Of a stretch of DNA of 64,000 nt, positions 3,283 to 18,757 are shown in pieces; position 1 is the first letter of the stretch; the number at the start of each line of letters is the position of its first letter. Position numbers and translations under genes: made by a program. The notes below the pieces were generated by a model. That model was not told where the DNA came from, searched no databases, and worked only from the letters and a program-made list of their open reading frames with translations. The DNA comes from Candidatus Microgenomates bacterium (lineage in GTDB: Bacteria > Patescibacteriota > Microgenomatia > UBA8517), in contig JBEKNE010000001.1 in the NCBI GenBank assembly GCA_049523135.1, positions 287,770 to 351,769 on the forward strand, written 5' to 3'.

Positions 3283-4461
3283 TTAGCTTTCAAATTTTTT
3301 GAAATATTTTTTCCCTTGGAGTTTTTCGGGTAGATGGCTTTGGGTGTCATATTTTTCATAACCCTCTCCATAGCCAACATCTTTCATCAATTTTGTAACG
3401 GGATTTCGGATTTTGAGAGGAACCGGAAGATTGCCGAATTTATTAACATCAGCTAGAGCTTCCATGTATGCATTATAAGCACTGCGGTCTTTTTTGGCGT
3501 TTGCTAGGTAGGTAACTCCTGCTGCCAGATTTTCCTGACACTCTGGATAACCGATCTCGTTACAGGCTTGAAAAACCGCATTGGCCACAACCAGTGCAGT
3601 TGGAGAGGCAACGTCCTCTGAAGCGAATACAACCATCCTGCGGGCAATGTAGAGAGGATCCTGACCTGCAGCAACCATTCTGGCCAGATAGTAAAGAGCT
3701 GCATCGGTATCGCTTGCGCGCATTGATTTTATGAATGCCGAAATGACATTGTAAAAATCCTCTCCGCGCTTATCGAAAGTGTATTGACGTCTTTGAAGTG
3801 CGGTTTCGAGATCGGGAATTTTTATAGTGGGGGTTTTAACAAGGCTTGATGCAATTTCCAAAACATTAAGCATTACGCGGGCGTCCCCATTACTGGCTTC
3901 CAACAAAAACTTTTCTGCTTCTTTTCCTAATTTTTTCTTAACCTGTTTGAGGGCTCTGTCCAAAATTTTTAATAAATCTTTTTCTGAGAGCTGCTCTAAA
4001 ATTAAAACACGGCACCTGGAAAGAAGCGGTCCGATTACTTCAAAAGAAGGATTTTCTGTTGTGGCCCCTATCAAAATTATGTCGCCGTGTTCAACATGAG
4101 GGAGAAGCTTATCCTGCTGGGCTTTATTAAATCTGTGGATTTCATCCAAGAATATAATTGGAGAATTTGTTAATTTAAGCTGTTTTTGATCCTGAATTAA
4201 AGATTCAATGTCTTTGACTTTTGTGTTAACTGCAGAAAATTCAAAGAATTCCCGTTTTAAAGTTGCAGCGATTATTCTTGCCAGTGTTGTTTTTCCCGAG
4301 CCGGGCGGACCCCAAAAAATCAGCGACGGGAAAAAATTTGATGTTTTTGCGTTGACAAAAAGCTTGGAAATTATTCCGTCTTTTCCAACCAAGTCTTCCT
4401 GTCCGACAAAATCTTTTAAAGTTTTTGGGCGTAATTTTTCTGGGAGGGGAATATTGTTCAT
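3283..4461 (-). CDS. rarA: Replication-associated recombination protein A (AAA+ ATPase RarA/MgsA)
   Basis: Walker A GPPGSGKTT and Walker B/sensor region FLDEIHRFNKAQQD. The conserved MgsA C-terminal domain is present. Start moved to the internal ATG (MNNIPLPEKLRP...), which matches the conserved RarA N-terminus. Confidence 0.85.
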   Translation of the reverse strand: MNNIPLPEKLRPKTLKDFVGQEDLVGKDGIISKLFVNAKTSNFFPSLIFWGPPGSGKTTLARIIAATLKREFFEFSAVNTKVKDIESLIQDQKQLKLTNSPIIFLDEIHRFNKAQQDKLLPHVEHGDIILIGATTENPSFEVIGPLLSRCRVLILEQLSEKDLLKILDRALKQVKKKLGKEAEKFLLEASNGDARVMLNVLEIASSLVKTPTIKIPDLETALQRRQYTFDKRGEDFYNVISAFIKSMRASDTDAALYYLARMVAAGQDPLYIARRMVVFASEDVASPTALVVANAVFQACNEIGYPECQENLAAGVTYLANAKKDRSAYNAYMEALADVNKFGNLPVPLKIRNPVTKLMKDVGYGEGYEKYDTQSHLPEKLQGKKYFKKFES

Positions 4462-7918: not shown

Positions 7919-8431
7919 ATGAATAAGCAATATTTATTTGTTACGATTTTTCTTATTGTTTTAATCATTGGTGGTGTAATTTTTACCTTTTCTGGGAAAA
8001 AGGAAGAAAAGCAAGTATTACAAACCCCAACTCCTTCTGCTACTATTACTCCTGAGGCATCAGAGACGCCGGCGGCAACAGAGTCTGCTAAAATACAAAC
8101 CATGGAAGACGGATTACAAATTCAAGATGAAGTAGTGGGAACAGGGGTAGAAGCAGTAAGTGGGAAAAGCGTAACGGTAAATTATGTCGGAACTCTTACC
8201 GACGGGACAAAATTTGACAGCTCTTATGACAGAAACCAACCCTTTACCTTTACACTTGGCGCCGGTGAAGTTATTCAGGGATGGGATCAGGGAGTTGCCG
8301 GAATGAAGGTTGGAGGAAAAAGAAAATTAACAATTCCTTCGTCTCTCGGATACGGTGCGACAGGAGCCGGTGGGGCAATTCCTCCCAATGCGACTTTAAT
8401 TTTTGAAGTAGAACTTCTTAAGGTTGAATAA
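7919..8431 (+). CDS. Membrane-anchored FKBP-type peptidyl-prolyl cis-trans isomerase
   Basis: N-terminal TM helix, then a Thr/Pro/Ala-rich linker, then an FKBP domain (VTVNYVGTLTDGTKFDSSYDRNQPFTFTLGAGEVIQGWDQG...LIFEVELL). Confidence 0.8.
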   Translation: MNKQYLFVTIFLIVLIIGGVIFTFSGKKEEKQVLQTPTPSATITPEASETPAATESAKIQTMEDGLQIQDEVVGTGVEAVSGKSVTVNYVGTLTDGTKFDSSYDRNQPFTFTLGAGEVIQGWDQGVAGMKVGGKRKLTIPSSLGYGATGAGGAIPPNATLIFEVELLKVE

Positions 8432-9534
8432 TGGCAAGAAAGTTTTTTAAGTCTAGAAGTAGCAATATTCCTCTGCCGATATTTTTTCCGGATGCAACAC
8501 GGGCAGTTGTAAGGTCGATCGATACATCTGATCTTGAATCTTCAAAAACTCCGGGCGTTTTAGTAAATACTTTTCATCTTTGGCAGGAGCTTAATGAGAG
8601 CACTTTAAAAAAATTTGACGGAATCGCAAAATTCATGGGTTTTAAGGGTGGAATAATCTCTGATTCCGGGGGATTCCAAGTAATGTCTGTGATTAAATCC
8701 GGAAATGTTAAAGGAAGAATTACGGACGAAGGTGTTGTTTTTTATCCAACCAGAAAAACCAAAAAAATTTTAACTCCGGAAAAATCAATTGATTTTCAGA
8801 TTGAGTTGAAAAGCGATATGGTTATCGTACTGGATGATTTTACGAATCCGAAATCTTCATATAAAGAAGCTAGAGAGTCGGTTGAGCGGACTATCTTTTG
8901 GGCAAAGCGCAGTAAAGATGAATTTATCAAAGTTTGTGATCGGGAGAAACTTGGTGAGGCCGAAAGACCCTACATTTTGGGTGTAGTGCAAGGCGGGAAG
9001 TACCAAGATCTTAGAAAATATTGTGCGGAAGAACTGACAAAGATTGGTTTTGATGGCTTGGGTTTCGGTGGTTGGCCGATTGATGATAAAGGAAATTTTG
9101 ATCTTGATTCGGCAAAGACAATTGTCGAAAACACACCCGAAAATTATTTTTTGTACGGACTCGGAGTCGGAAAACCGGAGGATATTATTAAATGCGTCAA
9201 ATTGGGATTTAATATTTTTGATTGTGTTTTACCGACACGTGACGCGCGGCACGAGCGGCTCTATATTTACAACGCCGGATCGATTGATGAAATTAATATA
9301 ATGAAGCCCGATTTTTATTCTTTTTATAGACCCGATAGGGAAAAATGTTTAGATGATGGCTCCCCAGTAAGCCTTGCTTGTGATTGTCTTCTTTGTAAAA
9401 AATACTCAAAAGCTTATCTTGCACACCTTTTTAAAATTAACGACTTTACCGCCGGTAGGCTTGCGACGATTCATAATTTGAGATTTTATTCCATATTTAT
9501 GGAAAAACTTCGGGAAACTCTTGACAGGAAGTAG
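8431..9534 (+). CDS. tgt: tRNA-guanine transglycosylase family (queuine tRNA-ribosyltransferase-like)
   Basis: Catalytic DSGGFQ and FDCV motifs and a C-terminal zinc site CDCLLC...H. The N-terminus is shorter and more divergent than classical bacterial Tgt. Confidence 0.8.
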   Translation: MARKFFKSRSSNIPLPIFFPDATRAVVRSIDTSDLESSKTPGVLVNTFHLWQELNESTLKKFDGIAKFMGFKGGIISDSGGFQVMSVIKSGNVKGRITDEGVVFYPTRKTKKILTPEKSIDFQIELKSDMVIVLDDFTNPKSSYKEARESVERTIFWAKRSKDEFIKVCDREKLGEAERPYILGVVQGGKYQDLRKYCAEELTKIGFDGLGFGGWPIDDKGNFDLDSAKTIVENTPENYFLYGLGVGKPEDIIKCVKLGFNIFDCVLPTRDARHERLYIYNAGSIDEINIMKPDFYSFYRPDREKCLDDGSPVSLACDCLLCKKYSKAYLAHLFKINDFTAGRLATIHNLRFYSIFMEKLRETLDRK

Positions 9535-9550
9535 TGTAAGTGTTTATACT
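9521..9550 (+). promoter_or_regulatory. Sigma70-like promoter (TTGACA - 18 nt - TATACT) ~11 nt upstream of the 9562 start codon
   Basis: Perfect -35 hexamer TTGACA at 9521-9526 and TATACT at 9545-9550. No Shine-Dalgarno between the -10 and the ATG. Confidence 0.45.
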
Positions 9551-9561
9551 GCTACGCAAAT

Positions 9562-10215
9562 ATGGAAGACGAACAAAATTCGCAAAGTCAGACACAGGAA
9601 AGTCCTCAAGTTTCCAGTCCAACACAGGGAAACGGGGTTTCTTTCCCGACAGTAGGTGAACCAAAGAAAAGCGGGGGAGCAAAAACCTTGTTGATTATTG
9701 GAATTCTTATATTAGTCGGAATACTTGGATTTGTGATTTATAAAAATGCTTCTAAAGGAAGTGAGACAACTTTAACTCAGCCAACACCTTATGACAATTT
9801 AACAACTTCGGATCAGAATCAAGCTACTACGGTAGCTACGGCAACACCGGCAGCTTTCGATAGAAGTAAAATTAAAGTCCAAATTCAAAACGGAACAGGT
9901 ATTGCAGGAGAAGCAGCATATCTCCAAACTCAGTTAAAGGGATTGGGATATACAAGTGTTTCAGTTGCGAATTCCGCTCAGCAAAATTTAACCACTGCAC
10001 AGGTTAGTTTCTCGAGTTCGCTTTCACAAAGTGCGGTTGATGAGCTGACTAATGAACTTAATTCAATTTATCAAAATGTTACCAGTACGAATTCCGCGAG
10101 CCCCACTTATGATGTTGTTATCATAACAGGACTCAGAAAAGGAGCGACAGCTAAGCCTTCGGCTACACCAACTTCGACTCCGGCCGCTACGCCGACAGCT
10201 TCACCTACTCCGTAA
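9562..10215 (+). CDS. Membrane-anchored LytR_C-like domain protein with Pro/Thr/Ala-rich termini
   Basis: TM helix, a LytR_C-like core (KVQIQNGTGIAGEAAYLQTQLKGLGY) and a low-complexity C-terminal tail ATAKPSATPTSTPAATPTASPTP. Confidence 0.5.
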   Translation: MEDEQNSQSQTQESPQVSSPTQGNGVSFPTVGEPKKSGGAKTLLIIGILILVGILGFVIYKNASKGSETTLTQPTPYDNLTTSDQNQATTVATATPAAFDRSKIKVQIQNGTGIAGEAAYLQTQLKGLGYTSVSVANSAQQNLTTAQVSFSSSLSQSAVDELTNELNSIYQNVTSTNSASPTYDVVIITGLRKGATAKPSATPTSTPAATPTASPTP

Positions 10216-10237
10216 TTCTTCTGTGTTAAAATAAATT

Positions 10238-10699
10238 GTGGCAAGTATAGCTAAACTTATCGTCGGCAGTTTTACTTTAAACTTGGGAAAGTTTTCTCTC
10301 CCCGTTACCTATATTCAGGCAATTGCAGTTCTTGCCCTTATTTTTTTTCTTGTCTTAATTCTTGCGCAGTTTAGGAGGCACTATGTCAACTGGTCTTTTA
10401 AAGGAGCCCTGTTTGGAATTGTTATCGGTTTTTTATTGGCTTTAGCTCTTGAAGGATTCTTACTTGTTGGTGGGAAAACCGTACTGATAAGTGTTTTGGG
10501 CTGGAAAAACCCGCCCGCTCCAATCTCAAATGCACTTGATGCAGGAAGAAGTAAATTGCTTCAGGTTTTGGGAACGGAAACTCAGGTTTCACCGACTCTT
10601 ATACAGGATGAAGTTACTGTAACCAATGCAATTGAACTTTTTCAAAGTTTAAACCCGACTGATATAAAAAAGGTAAAGTCGATTATTTGCCAACCTTGA
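10238..10699 (+). CDS. Hypothetical polytopic membrane protein
   Basis: GTG start; 3 predicted hydrophobic helices; no family recognised. Confidence 0.4.
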   Translation: MASIAKLIVGSFTLNLGKFSLPVTYIQAIAVLALIFFLVLILAQFRRHYVNWSFKGALFGIVIGFLLALALEGFLLVGGKTVLISVLGWKNPPAPISNALDAGRSKLLQVLGTETQVSPTLIQDEVTVTNAIELFQSLNPTDIKKVKSIICQP

Positions 10700-10756
10700 T
10701 TTTTGTTCCCGCCCTTTACTTTTAACTTTTGCCTTCTTTGGATATACTTCAGATAT

Positions 10757-11806
10757 ATGCAAGATATTGATGGAAAGGTTGATCAAATGACCTCCCGTTT
10801 GAATAAATTAATTGAGGTGGTGGATATTCCGAGTAAAAAGAAGAAAATAGAGGAACTTGAGGCTAAAGCGGCTGAGCCTTCTCTTTGGAACGATCCTCAA
10901 AGTGCCCGCGGGGTTACGCAGGAGCTTTCCGACCTGAAAAAGGAGGTGGAGGAAATTACCGATCTTTCGGATACGTTGGAAATTCTGAAGGAAGTGCCGG
11001 ATGAAGCCGAGGCCAGAAAGGCCGAGAAAGCTCTCGGGAAGCTTGAGCTAATATCTTATTTATCGGGTGAATATGATGCTAAAAACGCCCTAATTTCAAT
11101 CCATGCCGGCCAGGGAGGGACTGAAGCGATGGATTGGACAAATATGCTTTACCGCATGTATCTCAGGTTCTGCGAGCGTCAGGGATGGCCTACAGAGACT
11201 CTGGATTACACGGCTGGGGAAGAAGCCGGAGTCAAAAGTGTAACTTTTAAGGTTACGGGGCACTTCGCCTATGGCTACCTTAAGGGTGAGGCAGGAACCC
11301 ACAGGCTTGTCAGACAGTCTCCATTCAATGCGGATAAGCTTAGGCAAACTTCATTCGCCTTGGTTGAAGTGATGCCTGAGCTTGCCGATACCGATCTTAA
11401 GGATATTGAGATCAAGGATACCGACCTGGATTGGCAGTTCATTCACGCAGGAGGACATGGGGGTCAGAATGTAAATAAGGTGGCGACAGCAGTCCGGCTT
11501 ACCCACGTCCCGACAGGGATTGTAATTACGGCTTCAACCGAACGTTTTCAGGAACAAAATAGAAAAGCAGCCCTGGAACTACTGCGTGCCAAGCTTTGGA
11601 TTAGGCAGCAGGAAGTTGAGAAAGGTTTGAAAAAGGAGATTAAGGGTGACTATCGTCCGGCTTCATGGGGAACTCAAATCCGAAGCTATGTTCTTCATCC
11701 ATATAAGATGGTTAAAGATCTTCGTACGGATGTGGAAATCGGAAATACTGAGGCCGTTCTTGATGGAGGAATTGATGAATTTATAGATGCTGAGTTAAAA
11801 CTCTAA
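10757..11806 (+). CDS. prfB: Peptide chain release factor 2 (contiguous ORF, no programmed +1 frameshift)
   Basis: SPF tripeptide (RQSPFNA) and GGQ motif (HAGGHGGQNVNK); aligns along its length with RF2. Start at MQDIDGKVDQ, by homology with RF2 N-termini. Confidence 0.9.
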   Translation: MQDIDGKVDQMTSRLNKLIEVVDIPSKKKKIEELEAKAAEPSLWNDPQSARGVTQELSDLKKEVEEITDLSDTLEILKEVPDEAEARKAEKALGKLELISYLSGEYDAKNALISIHAGQGGTEAMDWTNMLYRMYLRFCERQGWPTETLDYTAGEEAGVKSVTFKVTGHFAYGYLKGEAGTHRLVRQSPFNADKLRQTSFALVEVMPELADTDLKDIEIKDTDLDWQFIHAGGHGGQNVNKVATAVRLTHVPTGIVITASTERFQEQNRKAALELLRAKLWIRQQEVEKGLKKEIKGDYRPASWGTQIRSYVLHPYKMVKDLRTDVEIGNTEAVLDGGIDEFIDAELKL

Positions 11807-11854
11807 TTTGGATTTGCTTTTTTGAGTTTTTAGGTGTTATATTGAGGTTAACCT

Positions 11855-12286
11855 ATGGAACCTCAAAATAAAAATATTTTCTCCAGGATTGATTTCAAAA
11901 AAAACTGGCCGTTTATTGCAATAGGATTGGCAATTATTCTTATCGGAGTCGGAACCTCATGGTTTATTTCTACAAGGTTAATAAATCAAACCAGCAGTGG
12001 TGAAGCTGCTCCTGGAGTAAAAGTTACTTCAACTGAAGCCGGAGTGCTGGATCCAAGCGTTAAGTATGATACTGCACAGGGGGTTGTGCAGGAGGGCGGA
12101 CTAAATGGTGAGGGTACTTTTCACCTTGTTCGTGACGGCGGACCATCCGACTATGTTTATTTAACTTCAAGTGTTCTTGATCTGAGTAATTTTGTTAATA
12201 AAAAAGTACAGATTTGGGGAGAAACTCTTGCTTCCAAAAAAGTCGGCTGGCTAATGGACGTAGCCAAGGTCCAGGTAACCCAGTAA
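11855..12286 (+). CDS. Hypothetical membrane-anchored exported protein
   Basis: N-terminal TM anchor followed by a Ser/Thr/Gly-rich linker and a small beta-rich domain. Confidence 0.4.
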   Translation: MEPQNKNIFSRIDFKKNWPFIAIGLAIILIGVGTSWFISTRLINQTSSGEAAPGVKVTSTEAGVLDPSVKYDTAQGVVQEGGLNGEGTFHLVRDGGPSDYVYLTSSVLDLSNFVNKKVQIWGETLASKKVGWLMDVAKVQVTQ

Positions 12287-12341
12287 ACTTTTAACACTGG
12301 CTTTATGCCTTTTCACTTGATACCCTAAAGTATCTTGTATT

Positions 12342-13013
12342 ATGTCTCAGGAAGAAAATAATTTGATAGTTTTTAAAGATGTTACGAAAGTATTCGGTCC
12401 GCTGACTGCGCTGGACAAAGTTTCCTTTGAAGTTAAAAATGGGGAATTTGTGTTTATCACGGGTCCTTCAGGTGCGGGCAAGACTACGATCTTAAAATTA
12501 ATATTGGGTGAGCTTATTCCGGATTCGGGAGGGGTAGTTGTGGACGGATCCGATGTTGCAAAGCTGACGGAAAAAGATTTACCTTCTTACCGCCAGAAAA
12601 TAGGAACGGTTTTCCAGGATTTTAAAGTTCTTTCTGAGAGAACTGTTTTTGAAAATACTGCGGTAGCGCTTGCCGTAATTGGACTTCCCGAAAGCGAATG
12701 GGACCTAAGAGTTCAACATGTTTTAAAATTAGTTGGGCTTTCCAGAAATTCCGATCATTTTCCGTCCCAGCTTTCCGGAGGAGAACTTCAGAGAGTTTCA
12801 CTTGCGCGTGCTTTGGTAGTCAATCCTAAAATAATTTTGGCAGATGAACCGACCGGAAACTTGGATTGGGAAACTTCCGACAATCTTATGCAGCTTTTTG
12901 AGAAAATAAACAAAGAGGGTAAAACCATTATTATGGCTACGCATAATATGGAAATAGTTAAAAAATACAAAAAAAGAATTATTAATATTGTGGGTGGTAA
13001 AATAAATAAATGA
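12342..13013 (+). CDS. ftsE: Cell-division ABC transporter ATP-binding protein FtsE
   Basis: Walker A GPSGAGKTT, ABC signature LSGGELQR and Walker B ILADEPTGNLD; ~220 aa, the typical FtsE length. Immediately followed by ftsX. Confidence 0.9.
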   Translation: MSQEENNLIVFKDVTKVFGPLTALDKVSFEVKNGEFVFITGPSGAGKTTILKLILGELIPDSGGVVVDGSDVAKLTEKDLPSYRQKIGTVFQDFKVLSERTVFENTAVALAVIGLPESEWDLRVQHVLKLVGLSRNSDHFPSQLSGGELQRVSLARALVVNPKIILADEPTGNLDWETSDNLMQLFEKINKEGKTIIMATHNMEIVKKYKKRIINIVGGKINK

Positions 13014-13924
13014 ATATTCATTTTAAAACTGCTTGGGGATATATCAGACGTTCTCCATTTCAGGCGCTTGCCGTATCATTTGTTCTTACTTTAACCTTTT
13101 TTGTGGCAACTTTGGTTTCTACCCTTGTTTATTCATCCTCAAAACTTATTAATTATTTTGAAACAAGACCTCAGGTAATTGCATTCTTAAAAAGTGATGC
13201 ACAGGATTCCGATATAGCGGATCTGCAGCATAAACTTGAAGATAATCCCCACATTAAAGACGTTAAGTATGTCAGCAAAGAGGAAGCGCTTTCAATTTAT
13301 AAAAATGCCACAAGCGACAATCCGCTATTAGGACAGCTTGTTGACCCGTCGATTTTCCCGGCATCACTTGAATTTTCCGTAACGGATTTATCTTTTGCTC
13401 AAAACATAATTGATCAGGTAAAAACCGAAAATATAGTAGATTCTGTTGGTTTTACTGCAGCTCTTGGGGGTGAATCCAGTTTAAATAGTGTTATTCAGAG
13501 ACTGAAAACAATTACAACTTACGTAAGAATTGGAGGAGCGGTTTTTGTGGGACTTTTGGCCGTAACCTCGCTTGTTGTTCTTCTTGTGATTACCAGTATG
13601 AGGGTTGTAGGAAGGAGAGAGGAAGTTGACATTTTGAATCTTATCGGGGCAACAAAAGGGTTTATTAGAAGCCCGATTGTTATTGAAGCTTTTATTTATA
13701 CTATTTTCGGAGTGGTCTTGGGTTGGGCAATTGCCTTTATTGCAGTCTTGTATTCTGCACCGACTATTGTTTCTTATTTCGGAGAAATTCCCATCCTTCC
13801 CAAAGATGTCTTGGGAATTCTTGAACTTTTTGGAGTAATACTTGCAATTGAACTTTTTGTCGGTGCGGCCCTTGCACTTTCCGGAAGTTTATTGGCAGTT
13901 TCGAGGGTTAAGAAAGTAAGATGA
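13010..13924 (+). CDS. ftsX: Cell-division permease-like protein FtsX
   Basis: N-terminal TM, a large extracytoplasmic loop, and the C-terminal FtsX 3-TM bundle. Start overlaps the ftsE stop. Confidence 0.85.
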   Translation: MNIHFKTAWGYIRRSPFQALAVSFVLTLTFFVATLVSTLVYSSSKLINYFETRPQVIAFLKSDAQDSDIADLQHKLEDNPHIKDVKYVSKEEALSIYKNATSDNPLLGQLVDPSIFPASLEFSVTDLSFAQNIIDQVKTENIVDSVGFTAALGGESSLNSVIQRLKTITTYVRIGGAVFVGLLAVTSLVVLLVITSMRVVGRREEVDILNLIGATKGFIRSPIVIEAFIYTIFGVVLGWAIAFIAVLYSAPTIVSYFGEIPILPKDVLGILELFGVILAIELFVGAALALSGSLLAVSRVKKVR

Positions 13925-15126
13925 AATTGGGCTATGGTAAAAAAAAATTATTTCTCCTCTCTTTAGCAGTAGGATTTTTTTTCTTCTTAGTTGGTGAAGT
14001 TAAAGCACAAACTTCCTGTGATAGTATGTGTGATCCAAGTGACAAAACATGTTTGAGTAATTTGCAGAATCTTTGTCAGGCCAAGGTTACAGAACTTGGC
14101 AATCAGGCAAACACACTTTCAAATCAAATTGCCCAATTTAATGCGCAAATTAAACTTACCTCACTTAAAATTTCTCAAACTGAAGCTCAAATTGCTCTTT
14201 TGGGTGGAAGAATTGATCAACTTGGACAATCTTTGGATAGTCTAAATCAAGCTTTTTCAGCAAGAGTAGTAGAAACTTATAAACTTTCGAGATTTGAAAA
14301 TAATTTTATTTTTCTTCTTTCGGCATCAAATCTGACGGATGCAGTATCAAGAATGCATTATCTTGAGAAAATTCAGGAAGAAGATAGGGATTTGCTTAAT
14401 AGATTACAAACTGCTCAGTCGACCTATCAGGGACAAAAACAAAGTCAAGAAAATTTGCAAAAACAGTTGCAGGTACAGCAGTCAAGCTTAAATCAGCAAA
14501 AAGCAGCAAAAAATGAATTATTGGCGGCGACTCAGAATAGTGAAACAAAATATCAATCCCTTTTGTTACAAGCTCGAAAAGAATTAGCAGCATTATCTCA
14601 ATATGCTCTAGGTAGGACTTCGACTGCACCAAATCAAACAGTTTGTGATGACTGGGGTTGTTATTATGCACAAGGTGACCCTCAATGGGGAAATATGATG
14701 CTTGGTAATTCTGGTTATACGGTTACGCAAGCTGGATGTTTAATAACCTCAAGTGCAATGATAGCAACTCATTATAAAAGAAACTATAAAAGAAACTTGA
14801 CTCCAGCTGATGTAGATACCGATCCTTCAGCGGGTTGGTTGTCTAAGACCATTACTGTCAATGGGGTGACAATAACAAGAACAAGTATAGGTGCCGACCC
14901 TTCTAATGTAAGTACTACAATAAATAGTATTGATAGTGAATTGAATGCTGGTAGACCTGTGATTGTTGGTTTAAGTGGACCTCATTTTATAGTTTTGCGA
15001 AGTGGGTCCAAAGGAAATTATAAAATGAATGATCCTTTAGGCAAAGATATCGGATATGATAAAGACTTCTCTAGTCAATATAGCCTTTCTGACATAATAG
15101 ATGTTGAGAGTGTGAGTGTGAATTGA
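13921..15126 (+). CDS. FtsEX-associated coiled-coil peptidoglycan hydrolase (PcsB/EnvC-like) with C-terminal papain-like (C39-like/CHAP-like) cysteine peptidase domain
   Basis: Signal peptide; a Cys-rich stretch (CDSMCDPSDKTCLSNLQNLC); a long Q-rich coiled coil containing the EnvC/PcsB-type segment ARVVETYK...FLLSASNLTDAVSRMHYLEKI. The C-terminal domain carries Cys (QAGCLITSAM) and His (GPHFIVL) motifs. Start overlaps the ftsX stop (ATGA). Confidence 0.7.
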   Translation: MKLGYGKKKLFLLSLAVGFFFFLVGEVKAQTSCDSMCDPSDKTCLSNLQNLCQAKVTELGNQANTLSNQIAQFNAQIKLTSLKISQTEAQIALLGGRIDQLGQSLDSLNQAFSARVVETYKLSRFENNFIFLLSASNLTDAVSRMHYLEKIQEEDRDLLNRLQTAQSTYQGQKQSQENLQKQLQVQQSSLNQQKAAKNELLAATQNSETKYQSLLLQARKELAALSQYALGRTSTAPNQTVCDDWGCYYAQGDPQWGNMMLGNSGYTVTQAGCLITSSAMIATHYKRNYKRNLTPADVDTDPSAGWLSKTITVNGVTITRTSIGADPSNVSTTINSIDSELNAGRPVIVGLSGPHFIVLRSGSKGNYKMNDPLGKDIGYDKDFSSQYSLSDIIDVESVSVN

Positions 15127-15253
15127 AAAAATTTAGGTTATCCAACGATGCATTTGTAATTCCAATAGTACTAAATTTCGAAATTGTTACTGATTATAAT
15201 AATAAATATTTATATAGGTTTTATTAACTCCCTAATTTTTAGTATCATTAGGA

Positions 15254-15676
15254 ATGTCTAGAAAAATTTTGAAATTTCTTAATTTATGGCTTCCTCCGAT
15301 TTTGTGGGCAGCCCTTATTTTTAAGTTTTCATCGGGAAGTATTCCTGTAGCCTCGCAAGTTTTTTGGCAGGACTTTATTATTAAAAAAACCGGCCACGTT
15401 CTGCTCTTTGGCATGTTCGCACTTCTTTCTTACAGGGGACTTACCGGTGAGGGGCTAAGCCGTAAAAAAGCTGCAATTTGGTCTGTTGCTATAGCGTTTT
15501 TGTACGGCGCATCCGATGAATTCCACCAAATGTTTACCCAGGGACGGGAAGCGACTGTCAGGGACGTTTTTATAGATGGAATTGGGGCAGGCGTTGTGAT
15601 GTATCTTTTCTATAATTTTTTGCCAAGGTTGCCTAAAAAAGTTCGTCTGTTTTTGCTACAATTCGATATCCTATGA
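15254..15676 (+). CDS. VanZ-like family membrane protein
   Basis: About 140 aa with 4 TM helices; KTGHVLLFGMFALL and SDEFHQ motifs typical of VanZ-like proteins. Confidence 0.65.
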   Translation: MSRKILKFLNLWLPPILWAALIFKFSSGSIPVASQVFWQDFIIKKTGHVLLFGMFALLSYRGLTGEGLSRKKAAIWSVAIAFLYGASDEFHQMFTQGREATVRDVFIDGIGAGVVMYLFYNFLPRLPKKVRLFLLQFDIL

Positions 15677-16665
15677 AAAAAATATTGGTAACGGGCGGAG
15701 CCGGCTACATAGGATCGTTTATGGTCCGCGAACTTCAATTGAAGGGTTTTGAACCGGTTATTGTGGATAATCTGTCGCAAGGACACAAAGAATCAGTTAA
15801 AGATTTTAGATTGGAGACTATCGATTTGGTTACGGAAAAAGAAAAATTGGATGCTCTTTTAACTTCCGAAAAATTTGACGGTGTAATTCATATGGCAAGT
15901 TTTATTCAAATGGGTGAGTCATATGCAAATCCTGCTAAGTATTACAAAAATAATGTGATAGGGATGATGAATTTACTCGATTCCATGAGGAAAAGCGGAA
16001 CCAATAAAATTATTTTATCCAGCAGTGCCGGAGTTTACGGTAATCCCGTTAAGCTTCCGATTGAAGAGGATGATCCCAAAAATCCGCTTAACCCTTACGG
16101 GGAAACAAAATATATTATGGAGCGGATGCTTGAGGATTACGATGCGGCTTACGGAATTAAATTTATAGGTATCCGCTATTTTAATGCGGCGGGAGCGGCA
16201 CTCGACGGAAGCATTGGTGAGGACCATCCGGAAGAAAGCCATTTAATTCCCAATATTATTAAAAAAGCCCTAAAAGGTGAGGAAATTGAAATCTTCGGTC
16301 AGGATTATAAAACGCCTGACGGAACTAATGTCAGGGATTATATCCACGTAATGGACCTGACGGAAATACATTCTACCGCTATGCAAAAATTACTGGATGG
16401 AGCCGAGAGCAATTTTTATAATGCAGGAATCGGCAGGGGATATTCAAATAAGGAAGTAATCGACATGATAAAAACAGTAACAGGGTTGGATTTGAAAATA
16501 AAATATGGTGAAAGAAGAGCGGGGGATGCCGATACCCTTTATGCATCAATTGAAAAGATCGGACATGATTTTTCCTGGGCTCCTAAATACGGATTAAAGG
16601 AGATTGTTGAAACTGCCTATGCTTGGCACAAAAATCACCCCCAAGGGTATGCTAATATGGATTAA
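15673..16665 (+). CDS. galE: UDP-glucose 4-epimerase
   Basis: N-terminal Rossmann motif VTGGAGYIGS and the SSSAGVYG/YxxxK catalytic region; 330 aa. Confidence 0.85.
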   Translation: MKKILVTGGAGYIGSFMVRELQLKGFEPVIVDNLSQGHKESVKDFRLETIDLVTEKEKLDALLTSEKFDGVIHMASFIQMGESYANPAKYYKNNVIGMMNLLDSMRKSGTNKIILSSSAGVYGNPVKLPIEEDDPKNPLNPYGETKYIMERMLEDYDAAYGIKFIGIRYFNAAGAALDGSIGEDHPEESHLIPNIIKKALKGEEIEIFGQDYKTPDGTNVRDYIHVMDLTEIHSTAMQKLLDGAESNFYNAGIGRGYSNKEVIDMIKTVTGLDLKIKYGERRAGDADTLYASIEKIGHDFSWAPKYGLKEIVETAYAWHKNHPQGYANMD

Positions 16666-17570
16666 TGACCCTTTTTGAAACCCTAAGACATATATTTGTT
16701 CCTCACGAGAGTAATAACCAGAAGGCAAAGCTACTGCACCCAGAAGGTTTATTCCTAATTATTATTGGGCTTATTTTTTATCAGCTAATGTTGGGCTTTA
16801 TCCATAAGGCGTTTCCGGAAGTATTGGGGTATGCGGCCAATATTTCTCCATCCGAAGTAATCAGTTTGACAAATCAGGAGAGAGTTGAAAACGGTCTGGC
16901 TCCCCTTAACGCAAATTCCACATTGTCCCAAGCTGCGGTGGCTAAGGGTAATGATATGCTTGCCAAGGGCTATTGGGCTCATTTTGCGCCCGACGGGACT
17001 TCACCTTGGAGCTTCTTTTTGAAATTCGGGTATAAGTATGAATATGCGGGAGAAAACTTGGCTCGGGATTTCCCGGATGCCGCCTCGGCCGTTACCGCCT
17101 GGATGAATTCCCCTTCCCATAGAGAAAACATTTTAAATCCCAACTATCAGGATATCGGTATCGGAGTTGTTGAAGGAAACTTGGCGGGTGTGGATACGAC
17201 CATAATTGTTCAATTTTTTGGAACTCCACTGGGAAGTCAGGCTTCAGTACCCGTTGTGCAGGCTAAAGAAGAAACAACCGTTTTGGGTGCCAAGCCGACC
17301 TATGTGCCTTCCCCAACCGCAACTCCCGGTGCGGCAGTTGTCTATGAAGCCACTTCGGCGGCTATCGTTTCATTTATTTCACCTTTCACTTCAACTAAAA
17401 GTATTTCGCTTCTGGTTACGGGAATCTTGATTTTGGTTCTGTCTGCCGATCTCATTATTGTTAGAAGAAAAAGGATTGCCAGGATTGGAGGAAGAACCCT
17501 GGCGCATTTGGCATTTTTCGGAATGATTTTAGCGGTTATACTGATACTGAAAGCGGGGCAGGTCATATGA
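16665..17570 (+). CDS. CAP/SCP (YkwD-like) domain protein flanked by N- and C-terminal TM helices
   Basis: CAP-domain motifs (GYWAHFAPDG, AWMNSPSHRENIL). A Pro/Thr/Ala-rich linker sits before the C-terminal hydrophobic segment. Confidence 0.7.
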   Translation: MTLFETLRHIFVPHESNNQKAKLLHPEGLFLIIIGLIFYQLMLGFIHKAFPEVLGYAANISPSEVISLTNQERVENGLAPLNANSTLSQAAVAKGNDMLAKGYWAHFAPDGTSPWSFFLKFGYKYEYAGENLARDFPDAASAVTAWMNSPSHRENILNPNYQDIGIGVVEGNLAGVDTTIIVQFFGTPLGSQASVPVVQAKEETTVLGAKPTYVPSPTATPGAAVVYEATSAAIVSFISPFTSTKSISLLVTGILILVLSADLIIVRRKRIARIGGRTLAHLAFFGMILAVILILKAGQVI

Positions 17571-17827
17571 AAGAATTTATAAAAGATTTATCTCACTATT
17601 TAGTACTTTTTGGGATACTTTTGGCAGGATTTACCGGACTTATAATTTTTTCCTATGATAAGTCTTTTCAAATTGCCGTATCTTTAGCCTTGGTTGCGGC
17701 TTACGTTTCATGGGGAGTGGTACACCACTATCTTCACAAAGATCTGCATTTCGAAGTAGTTCTGGAATATCTTGTTGTTGCGGTATTGGGGTTTGTAATT
17801 ATTTTTTCAATAATAGTTAGGACGTGA
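17567..17827 (+). CDS. Small 2-3 TM membrane protein (hypothetical)
   Basis: 86-aa hydrophobic ORF whose start overlaps the upstream stop (ATGA). Confidence 0.35.
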   Translation: MKEFIKDLSHYLVLFGILLAGFTGLIIFSYDKSFQIAVSLALVAAYVSWGVVHHYLHKDLHFEVVLEYLVVAVLGFVIIFSIIVRT

Positions 17828-17866
17828 TTTACTTAATATAAGCGTGATATACTTCTATCTACAGCC

Positions 17867-18757
17867 ATGAAAAAGGTAACTAAAGCAGTAATTCCGGCGG
17901 CAGGCTTCGGTACGAGATTTTTACCCCAAACCAAGGCTATGCCCAAAGAGATGCTTCCGATCGTGGATAAACCGATAATTCAATATATTGTTGAGGAACT
18001 GGTTGATGCAGGAATAAAAGACATAATTATTGTAACAGGCTACCACAAGCGTACTATTGAGGACCATTTTGACTATCCGAATCTTGATTTGGTTGAGAAT
18101 CTTAAGATGGGTGGAGACAAGAAACGCCCGCTTTTGGAAGAGGTTGAAAAAATTGCGGATTTGGCTAATTTTATCTATGTCAGGCAAAAAGGCCCTTACG
18201 GTAACGGCACGCCACTACTCAACGTTAGGGATATAATCGGAGACGAACCTTTTATTTATACCTGGAGCGATGACTTTATCGTTGCCCATCCCTCAAGATT
18301 TAAACAGCTGATTGCAGCCTATGAAAAGTACGGATATAGCTGTCTTAGCGGTGTAAAAGCGATTAAAGATGAAGATTATGACAGATATGGTTTTGTCGGC
18401 GGAAAGAGTCTCGAGCCCGGGGTTATTGATGCCAATGTGATTATAGAAAAGCCTGGTAAAGAAAACGCCCCTTCCGATCTGGCCACTGTTTCGGGATTTT
18501 TATTCACTCCCGATATTTTTGATTGTTTGGACAGAGCTTTAGCCAGGCTTGAAGACGGTCGGGAATTTTATTATGTGGATGCCCTGAAACTTATGCTTGA
18601 GGATGGGAAGCATGTGCTTGGGGTAGAAATAAAGGACGGCAAATACTATGATACCGGCAATAAGCTTGAGTACCTAAAAACTGTAGTTGAATTTGCTCTG
18701 AAACACCCGGATATGGGTGAAAAATTTAGAGATTATCTCAAATCCCTGGAGTTTTAA
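17867..18757 (+). CDS. galU: UTP--glucose-1-phosphate uridylyltransferase
   Basis: AVIPAAGFGTRFLPQTKAMPKEMLPIVDKPIIQY, the canonical GalU N-terminus; 296 aa. Confidence 0.9.
   Translation: MKKVTKAVIPAAGFGTRFLPQTKAMPKEMLPIVDKPIIQYIVEELVDAGIKDIIIVTGYHKRTIEDHFDYPNLDLVENLKMGGDKKRPLLEEVEKIADLANFIYVRQKGPYGNGTPLLNVRDIIGDEPFIYTWSDDFIVAHPSRFKQLIAAYEKYGYSCLSGVKAIKDEDYDRYGFVGGKSLEPGVIDANVIIEKPGKENAPSDLATVSGFLFTPDIFDCLDRALARLEDGREFYYVDALKLMLEDGKHVLGVEIKDGKYYDTGNKLEYLKTVVEFALKHPDMGEKFRDYLKSLEF

Follow-up and report, generated by a model that had tools for sequence, protein, structure and literature searches.

An ftsEX-coupled gene of Microgenomates encodes a coiled-coil protein with a predicted C39-type cysteine peptidase domain

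Gene organization of the locus

A 64-kb stretch of DNA from a Candidatus Microgenomates bacterium (contig JBEKNE010000001.1), referred to below as the window, carries ftsE, ftsX and a gene for a predicted secreted peptidase of 401 residues (hereafter, the hydrolase) in direct succession. An original prediction, made from the DNA letters alone, had placed ftsE-ftsX and a third open reading frame (ORF) in this region, and all three ORFs were recovered on the + strand with exactly the same coordinates.

12342-13013, + strand: ftsE, ATP-binding subunit, 223 residues (NCBIfam TIGR02673, Pfam ABC_tran)
13010-13924, + strand: ftsX, membrane subunit with an extracytoplasmic domain, 304 residues (Pfam FtsX_ECD and FtsX permease)
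13921-15126, + strand: gene for the predicted secreted protein with a coiled coil and a C39-like cysteine peptidase domain, 401 residues (ORF)

FtsE scored 268 bits with the NCBIfam FtsE equivalog model TIGR02673, which passes the cut-off of 264.85, and matched Pfam ABC_tran with an E of 5e-37. Residues 55-146 of FtsX correspond to the Pfam domain FtsX_ECD (E 7e-15) and residues 178-290 to the FtsX permease domain (E 2e-11); the NCBIfam FtsX models gave 133 and 109 bits, under their equivalog cut-offs. The stop codon of ftsE (TGA) and the start codon of ftsX (ATG) overlap as ATGA, and the same overlap joins the ftsX stop to the start of the hydrolase gene. Because ATGA overlaps are the usual sign of coupling, the three genes were read as a translationally coupled unit. 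A promoter and terminator scan of positions 10600-15700 returned nothing beyond shuffled expectation, and no operon boundaries were drawn from it.

The hydrolase, a polypeptide separate from FtsE and FtsX, begins with a predicted signal peptide; a long helical hairpin that contains a CC_PcsB match follows, and Peptidase_C39_2 is the C-terminal domain. Its sequence agrees at 100% identity with P0001, from a metagenome-assembled genome of Candidatus Microgenomates, and has 842 homologues at E<=1e-3. No paralogues were found within the 64-kb window, where the gene is single-copy. Two sets of relatives were used below: an alignment of 42 homologues with 50-78% identity to the hydrolase, and 223 family members of 330-470 residues, in which the conservation of catalytic residues was counted.

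A C39-type catalytic domain with a conserved catalytic set

The following features were located in the C-terminal part of the hydrolase.

14641-15123, + strand: C-terminal Peptidase_C39_2-type papain-fold domain, residues 241-401
14671-14673, + strand: Gln251, predicted oxyanion-hole residue, present in 223/223 relatives
14737-14739, + strand: Cys273, predicted nucleophile, in a GC motif that starts a helix, present in 223/223 relatives
14983-14985, + strand: His355, predicted general base, in the HFIV strand, present in 221/223 relatives
15031-15036, + strand: Asp371-Pro372, predicted third member of the triad, each residue present in 220/223 relatives

The catalytic domain had been predicted to be papain-like or C39-like rather than CHAP or LytM, with a Cys/His pair whose conservation was to be checked together with the domain family and the fold. 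In the hidden Markov model (HMM) searches, Peptidase_C39_2 matched all 42 homologues at E<=0.01, with a best E of 9.6e-13, and Peptidase_C39 matched 34 of the 42. Distant representatives scored 24.6-45 bits with Peptidase_C39_2, over its cut-off. CHAP, NlpC/P60 and M23 gave no Pfam match on the hydrolase at E<=1, and none of them was among the first 25 families by member count across the 42 homologues. When HMMER was run exhaustively with just the C-terminal domain, 383 clusters (50% identity) were obtained at E<=1e-3, and the best 150 of these were mostly proteins of about 400 residues in which the domain is likewise C-terminal.

The residues named in the original prediction proved to be nearly invariant. 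The predicted nucleophile lies in TQAGCLITSSAM, the histidine in GPHFIVL and the aspartate in MNDP, and the Gly272-Cys273 pair as a unit is kept in every one of the 223 relatives. When the domain profile was aligned with the C39 protease LahT (6mpz), Cys273 fell on Cys27, His355 on the NHFVV motif and Asp371-Pro372 on INDP; the C39-like protein 3erv of Bacillus anthracis aligned in the pattern GC...H...DP, and His355 also aligned with the DHFIV motif of 9jdd. The order Gln-Cys-His-Asp, with the cysteine on an N-terminal helix and the histidine on a β-strand, is that of a papain-like peptidase. The cytoplasmic fusion to the N-terminus of an ABC exporter that marks C39 in the strict sense (PF03412) was not found, the domain being C-terminal and placed after a signal peptide and a coiled coil. 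On the basis of this conservation, the C-terminal domain is predicted to be a catalytically competent C39_2-type cysteine peptidase of papain fold that uses Gln251, Cys273, His355 and Asp371.

Structure prediction gave the same picture. The full-length AlphaFold2 (AF2) model had a mean predicted local distance difference test (pLDDT) score of 77. Since the p85 iSH2 coiled coil accounted for most of its Foldseek matches, the C-terminal domain was modelled and searched separately. The top match in the structure search of this model was the pseudomurein endoisopeptidase PeiR (8z4h, score 9.4), followed by UfSP2 (9.2), by the C39-like domain 3b79, PCAT1 and ComA (8.8), by 3erv (8.7) and by 9jdd, a type VI secretion system (T6SS) effector annotated as C39-like (8.3). 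Many further papain-fold proteases stood lower in the list, and no CHAP, NlpC/P60 or M23 structure was among the top 60 matches. Foldseek ranked the C-terminal domain similarly with weak scores, the best being ComA (3k8u, E 4e-3, TM-score 0.45-0.54). C39 and C39_2 belong to the papain/cathepsin cluster (cluster I) of papain-fold enzymes, and CHAP and NlpC/P60 to another, cluster II (PMC10318531). Given these clusters and the fold matches, the description of the domain as papain-like or C39-like rather than CHAP or LytM is correct, and HMM matches, fold and conservation agree on it.

The coiled coil and its CC_PcsB tip

Two features were located in the region between the N-terminal stretch and the catalytic domain.

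14044-14610, + strand: coiled-coil region, helices 42-61, 66-124, 128-133, 138-204 and 208-230 (AF2 secondary structure)
14212-14418, + strand: hairpin tip, Pfam CC_PcsB, residues 98-166, presumed FtsX-binding site

In the AF2 model, this region forms two long antiparallel helices joined at a short tip, together with flanking helices, an arrangement like that published for PcsB and EnvC (PMC11627006). The segment from ARVVETYK to HYLEKI that the original prediction had quoted as PcsB/EnvC-type corresponds to residues 114-151 and falls within the CC_PcsB match, a family that matched 38 of the 42 homologues with a best E of 9.8e-8. Residues 44-224 also align to positions 43-211 of the NCBIfam PcsB model, with an E of 5.6e-4 and a score far under the equivalog cut-off. 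The tip is densely conserved, and R115, E118, Y120, L148 and D155 occur in every one of the 42 homologues in the alignment. From structures of EnvC and FtsX (PMC11627006), the hairpin tip may be taken as the putative site of FtsX binding. The full-length model weakly retrieved EnvC of the FtsEX-EnvC complex (8tzl_E) and PcsB (4cgk) in Foldseek, and full-length single-sequence and profile searches of PDB sequences returned chance or generic coiled-coil matches such as tropomyosin and GCN4.

A separate feature of the coiled coil is an almost invariant LLGGRI motif (residues 89-97, QIALLGGRI, window positions 14185-14211), which lies within the helix 66-124 about 25 residues from the tip. L94, G96 and R97 are invariant in the 42-homologue alignment and G95 is present in at least 90%. 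A Gly-Gly pair is unusual inside a coiled coil, and the motif may be a hinge or a place where the catalytic domain docks.

Signal peptide and cysteines outside the active site

Three further features concern the N-terminus and the cysteines outside the active site.

13921-14007, + strand: predicted Sec signal peptide, residues 1-29, with KKK, a hydrophobic core and VKA before Q (sequence read by eye)
14017-14076, + strand: Cys-rich N-terminal stretch with Cys33, Cys37, Cys44 and Cys52 (positions checked in the sequence)
14644-14661, + strand: Cys242/Cys247 pair in CDDWGC, just ahead of the catalytic core

The AF2 model places a helix at residues 7-23 of the signal peptide and a low-confidence segment at 22-30. 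The hydrolase has seven cysteines in total, at positions 33, 37, 44, 52, 242 and 247 and at the catalytic position 273. Five cysteines had been claimed for the N-terminal stretch in the original prediction, whereas CDSMCDPSDKTCLSNLQNLC holds four. Of those relatives whose coiled-coil start could be placed, most have two (72 proteins) or four (32 proteins) N-terminal cysteines, and the number falls to zero in more distant members; the spacing of these cysteines differs between subgroups.

The N-terminal cysteines had been suggested to form disulfides or to bind metal. Because their counts are mostly even (two or four), their spacing variable and their presence dispensable in distant members, disulfides are favoured over a metal site, and the four residues probably form one or two of them. 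Metal binding was judged less likely on the same grounds. A lipoprotein anchor at Cys33 was rejected by eye, the preceding Q-T-S forming no lipobox. The second pair, Cys242 and Cys247, lies in a small β-hairpin of the model and may likewise form a disulfide. A cysteine pair within the 45 residues before the catalytic cysteine is present in 148 of the 223 relatives, and some subgroups without it bear a cysteine pair in a nearby insertion instead.

Conservation of the gene order

In order to follow the locus in other genomes, one genome per GTDB species was scanned. Of the 352 relatives obtained, the best 80 loci were kept, and four were added from look-ups. The best 80 of the 352 loci carry the Microgenomates-type gene order, which runs tgt, a LytR_C gene, a hypothetical gene, prfB, a gene for a 143-residue protein, ftsE, ftsX, the hydrolase gene, vanZ, a gene for an NAD-dependent epimerase and a CAP-domain gene. 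Among the 77 loci with enough upstream DNA, 75 have ftsX directly upstream of the hydrolase gene on the same strand, with the identical 4-nucleotide overlap in 24. The two exceptions are L045, in which ftsX ends at 1688 and the hydrolase gene starts at 3501 after an insertion of about 1.8 kb, and L052, where ftsX is missing from the vicinity. Together with the CC_PcsB matches, this arrangement supports the proposed link of the hydrolase to FtsEX. Loci with a lineage name are titled Microgenomates, Woesebacteria, Roizmanbacteria, Levyibacteria, Shapirobacteria, Gottesmanbacteria or "Patescibacteria group"; one bears the label Saccharibacteria.

Several side observations were made in these loci. 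The L052 hydrolase may be an unlinked paralogue. The conserved block, at about 8431-18757 of the window and in L001-L084, extends past the CAP/SCP-domain gene to genes for an 86-residue membrane protein and a sugar-nucleotidyltransferase. An extra gene lies between the hydrolase gene and vanZ in L001 (6307-7155), L003 (6306-7097) and L004 (6295-7407) and encodes a 282-residue hypothetical protein or a lamin-tail domain (LTD) protein of 263-370 residues; it is absent here, since the gap before vanZ in the window (15127-15253) is just 128 bp. About half of the loci bear evidently unreliable titles such as "uncultured Gammaproteobacteria", "Pseudomonadales", "Alphaproteobacteria", "Eisenbacteria" or "Methylomirabilota" (L009, L010, L012, L013, L019, L020, L023-L026, L037, L061 and others), which look like mislabelled taxonomy or contaminated bins.

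Proposed function and alternatives

On the basis of these features, we consider it likely that the hydrolase is a peptidase that cleaves peptidoglycan under the control of FtsEX and serves the separation of Microgenomates cells, with a presumed contact to FtsX and a presumed peptidoglycan substrate. The ftsE-ftsX-hydrolase unit would encode the FtsEX mechanotransmission complex and its cognate extracytoplasmic wall hydrolase, which would be exported by means of its Sec signal peptide. By analogy with EnvC and RipC, the extracytoplasmic domains of two FtsX subunits may hold the hairpin tip (residues ~115-155) between them. When FtsE binds and hydrolyses ATP in the cytoplasm, the signal would pass by way of FtsX and the coiled coil to a presumably autoinhibited C-terminal domain, which would be released or positioned. 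The C39-type domain would then act at the division site on the stem or the cross-link of peptidoglycan, cleaving a peptide or amide bond there and allowing the daughter cells to separate.

Four lines of evidence make a peptidoglycan substrate likely. The FtsEX partners characterised so far are all coiled-coil proteins and either cut peptidoglycan themselves or activate a hydrolase that does (PMC11627006). Three distant C39_2 relatives of about 450 residues (P0180, P0254 and P0267) are fused to two LysM peptidoglycan-binding modules; the identity to the query domain, recorded for two of them, is 36-37%. The C39 domain of PeiR lyses methanogen walls experimentally (PMC6189367). Finally, C39-like modules occur in phage lysins: the N5 domain of mycobacteriophage LysA resembles 3erv (PMC3314691), and Peptidase_C39_2 is listed among the enzymatically active lysin domains (PMC8223927). 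We also observed C39_2 relatives in the large proteins P0234 (978 residues) and P0236 (1090 residues), one of which the Joint Genome Institute (JGI) names "parallel beta-helix repeat protein"; these varied architectures suggest that the domain is a mobile module directed at the wall.

Several results weigh against this interpretation. The Pfam scores of the hydrolase itself are all slightly under the gathering cut-offs, at 25.9 bits against 27 for CC_PcsB (model positions 1-69 of 75), 21.5 against 22 for Peptidase_C39 and 22 against 24 for Peptidase_C39_2, so that the domain assignment appears borderline for the single hydrolase sequence and firm at the level of the family. PcsB and EnvC match weakly in fold (E 0.03-0.08, TM-score 0.2-0.3), unrelated coiled-coil families also match the homologues, and coiled-coil matching is prone to compositional bias. 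With hhalign, the family alignment reached 11.7% probability against Escherichia coli EnvC, and no relationship was detectable by this comparison. The predicted template modelling (pTM) score of the full-length AF2 model was 0.49, which makes the interdomain arrangement uncertain. A PHROGs search gave an insignificant endolysin match (E 0.084) together with tape-measure coiled-coil matches. C39_2 enzymes have, moreover, been described as transporter-associated peptidases and not as wall hydrolases (PMC10318531).

The cellular role could also lie in growth, with the hydrolase serving wall expansion or turnover under FtsEX control and not the splitting of the septum. Bacillus subtilis FtsEX drives the elongation-associated hydrolase CwlO (PMC6705773), and many members of the family are labelled "CwlO-like" by JGI. 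The window also lacks a tie to divisome genes, the neighbours being prfB, vanZ, the epimerase gene and the CAP-domain gene. Most characterised FtsEX systems, however, act at division, and we judge a role in growth unlikely; it would differ from a role in cell separation in cellular timing alone.

In a further possibility, the domain is, like classical C39 domains, a protease that processes proteins or peptides, and FtsEX controls how a surface or secreted protein such as a pilin, an S-layer protein or an adhesin matures or is shed. Here, however, the domain is extracytoplasmic and carried on a probable PcsB-type coiled coil instead of at the cytoplasmic N-terminus of an exporter, its relatives bear LysM modules and its top structural match is wall-lytic. 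As the characterised FtsEX partners all act on peptidoglycan, a processing protease is quite improbable.

Many bacteria of the candidate phyla radiation (CPR) are thought to live attached to hosts, and the structural relatives of the domain include the C39-like T6SS effector 9jdd as well as phage and archaeal-virus lysins. The enzyme might accordingly be aimed at the wall of a host or neighbour in episymbiosis, with FtsEX as its power unit. The gene is, however, single-copy in the window and sits in a strictly conserved housekeeping neighbourhood, coupled to ftsEX in 75 of 77 loci, and no immunity gene was evident; we regard a host-directed enzyme as very unlikely. It is most improbable of all that the domain has lost catalysis and works, in degenerate form, as the activator of another hydrolase. 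The LytM domain of EnvC, likewise a coiled-coil partner of FtsEX, offers a precedent for such a dead catalytic fold, but Gln, Cys, His and Asp are all retained here, in 220-223 of the 223 relatives, as is typical of an active enzyme.

Comparison with known systems

Among the closest known systems is PcsB of Streptococcus pneumoniae (FtsEX-PcsB, 4CGK), which is likewise secreted, has an N-terminal coiled coil of long helices and short connectors and ends in a papain-fold cysteine hydrolase, with FtsEX control presumed in both. The catalytic domain of PcsB is, however, a CHAP domain of cluster II, whereas the hydrolase carries a C39_2 domain of cluster I and has no CHAP match. The gene described here is also joined into the ftsEX operon, and the Cys-rich N-terminal stretch is an addition. 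The hydrolase is not a PcsB orthologue, since it scored 19.2 bits with NCBIfam NF046104 against a cut-off of 450. The EnvC model NF008644 gave 9.8 bits against a cut-off of 270 (E 0.34), and the hydrolase was not recovered as an EnvC orthologue.

EnvC of the FtsEX-EnvC-amidase systems of E. coli, Vibrio and Pseudomonas likewise has a long antiparallel coiled coil, with which it binds the extracytoplasmic domains of FtsX. The LytM domain at the C-terminus of EnvC is degenerate, and EnvC acts solely as an activator of amidases, whereas a complete catalytic set is present here. RipC of Mycobacterium and Corynebacterium and CwlO of Bacillus subtilis are coiled-coil hydrolases activated directly by FtsEX, a control presumed for the present protein by analogy. 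They contain NlpC/P60 (C40) domains, none of which was detected here. The hydrolase carries none of the C-terminal CHAP, NlpC/P60 or LytM/M23 domains found in all characterised FtsEX partners.

The enzymes closest in catalytic domain differ in setting. PeiR (8Z4H), the C39_2 phage lysins and 3ERV, a Bacillus anthracis C39-like protein annotated as a putative peptidase, share just 15-18% sequence identity with the hydrolase domain. The lysins carry wall-binding repeats and attack the wall from outside or at lysis, without coiled-coil coupling to FtsEX. The classical C39 domains of ComA, PCAT1 and LahT lie in the cytoplasm at the N-terminus of ABC exporters and cleave double-glycine leaders, whereas the domain described here is extracytoplasmic and separate from the ABC system.

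A conserved upstream protein and prfB

One further gene of the conserved block may belong to the cluster.

11855-12286, + strand: conserved 143-residue membrane-anchored protein between prfB and ftsE, tentatively an extra cluster member

This protein is anchored in the membrane at its N-terminus; its extracytoplasmic domain is about 85 residues long and has an invariant C-terminal WLMDV motif. The protein showed no Pfam or PDB sequence match. A homologue lies immediately before ftsE in about 70 of the 84 loci, and the protein may be an uncharacterised cofactor of the FtsEX-hydrolase module. A more elaborate proposal is a four-part division-hydrolase module of Microgenomates unlike any characterised FtsEX system, in which a cutter from the C39/papain cluster, perhaps with a different bond specificity (e.g. 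that of a PeiR-like cross-link endopeptidase), works with the 143-residue protein as a lineage-specific cofactor whose role would resemble that of SweC/SweD for FtsEX-CwlO. We put this forward as speculative and on balance doubtful.

The neighbouring prfB (window 10703-11806, + strand) encodes a homologue of release factor 2 (RF2). The gene is a single uninterrupted ORF, and its region around SLWNDP aligns by eye to E. coli RF2 just past the frameshift site. As there is no in-frame stop at this place, prfB seems to be without the programmed +1 frameshift. Its true start is probably the ATG at about 10757 and not the TTG at 10703.

Significance

Members of this family are already labelled automatically as "C39 family peptidase" by NCBI, as "peptidoglycan hydrolase CwlO-like protein" by JGI or as "hypothetical", and many carry precomputed C39_2 and CC_PcsB matches. 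There is thus no discovery in the domains as such. The hydrolases covered in a 2024 review of FtsEX partners have LytM, CHAP and NlpC/P60 domains alone (PMC11627006), and no description of an FtsEX-coupled C39-type hydrolase or of CPR division hydrolases was found in searches limited to open-access papers and bioRxiv. The finding is a modest domain swap in a well-understood machine, so far confined to an uncultivated lineage, and it overturns no concept; its practical value lies in better annotation and in giving biochemists a defined target. Wall hydrolysis under FtsEX control is central to bacterial division and structurally well studied. That a CPR class appears to pair the common coiled-coil adaptor with a C39-type papain domain suggests that the adaptor-plus-ATPase logic is independent of the catalytic fold, and the hydrolase provides a testable candidate for wall splitting in these tiny, mostly uncultivated cells.

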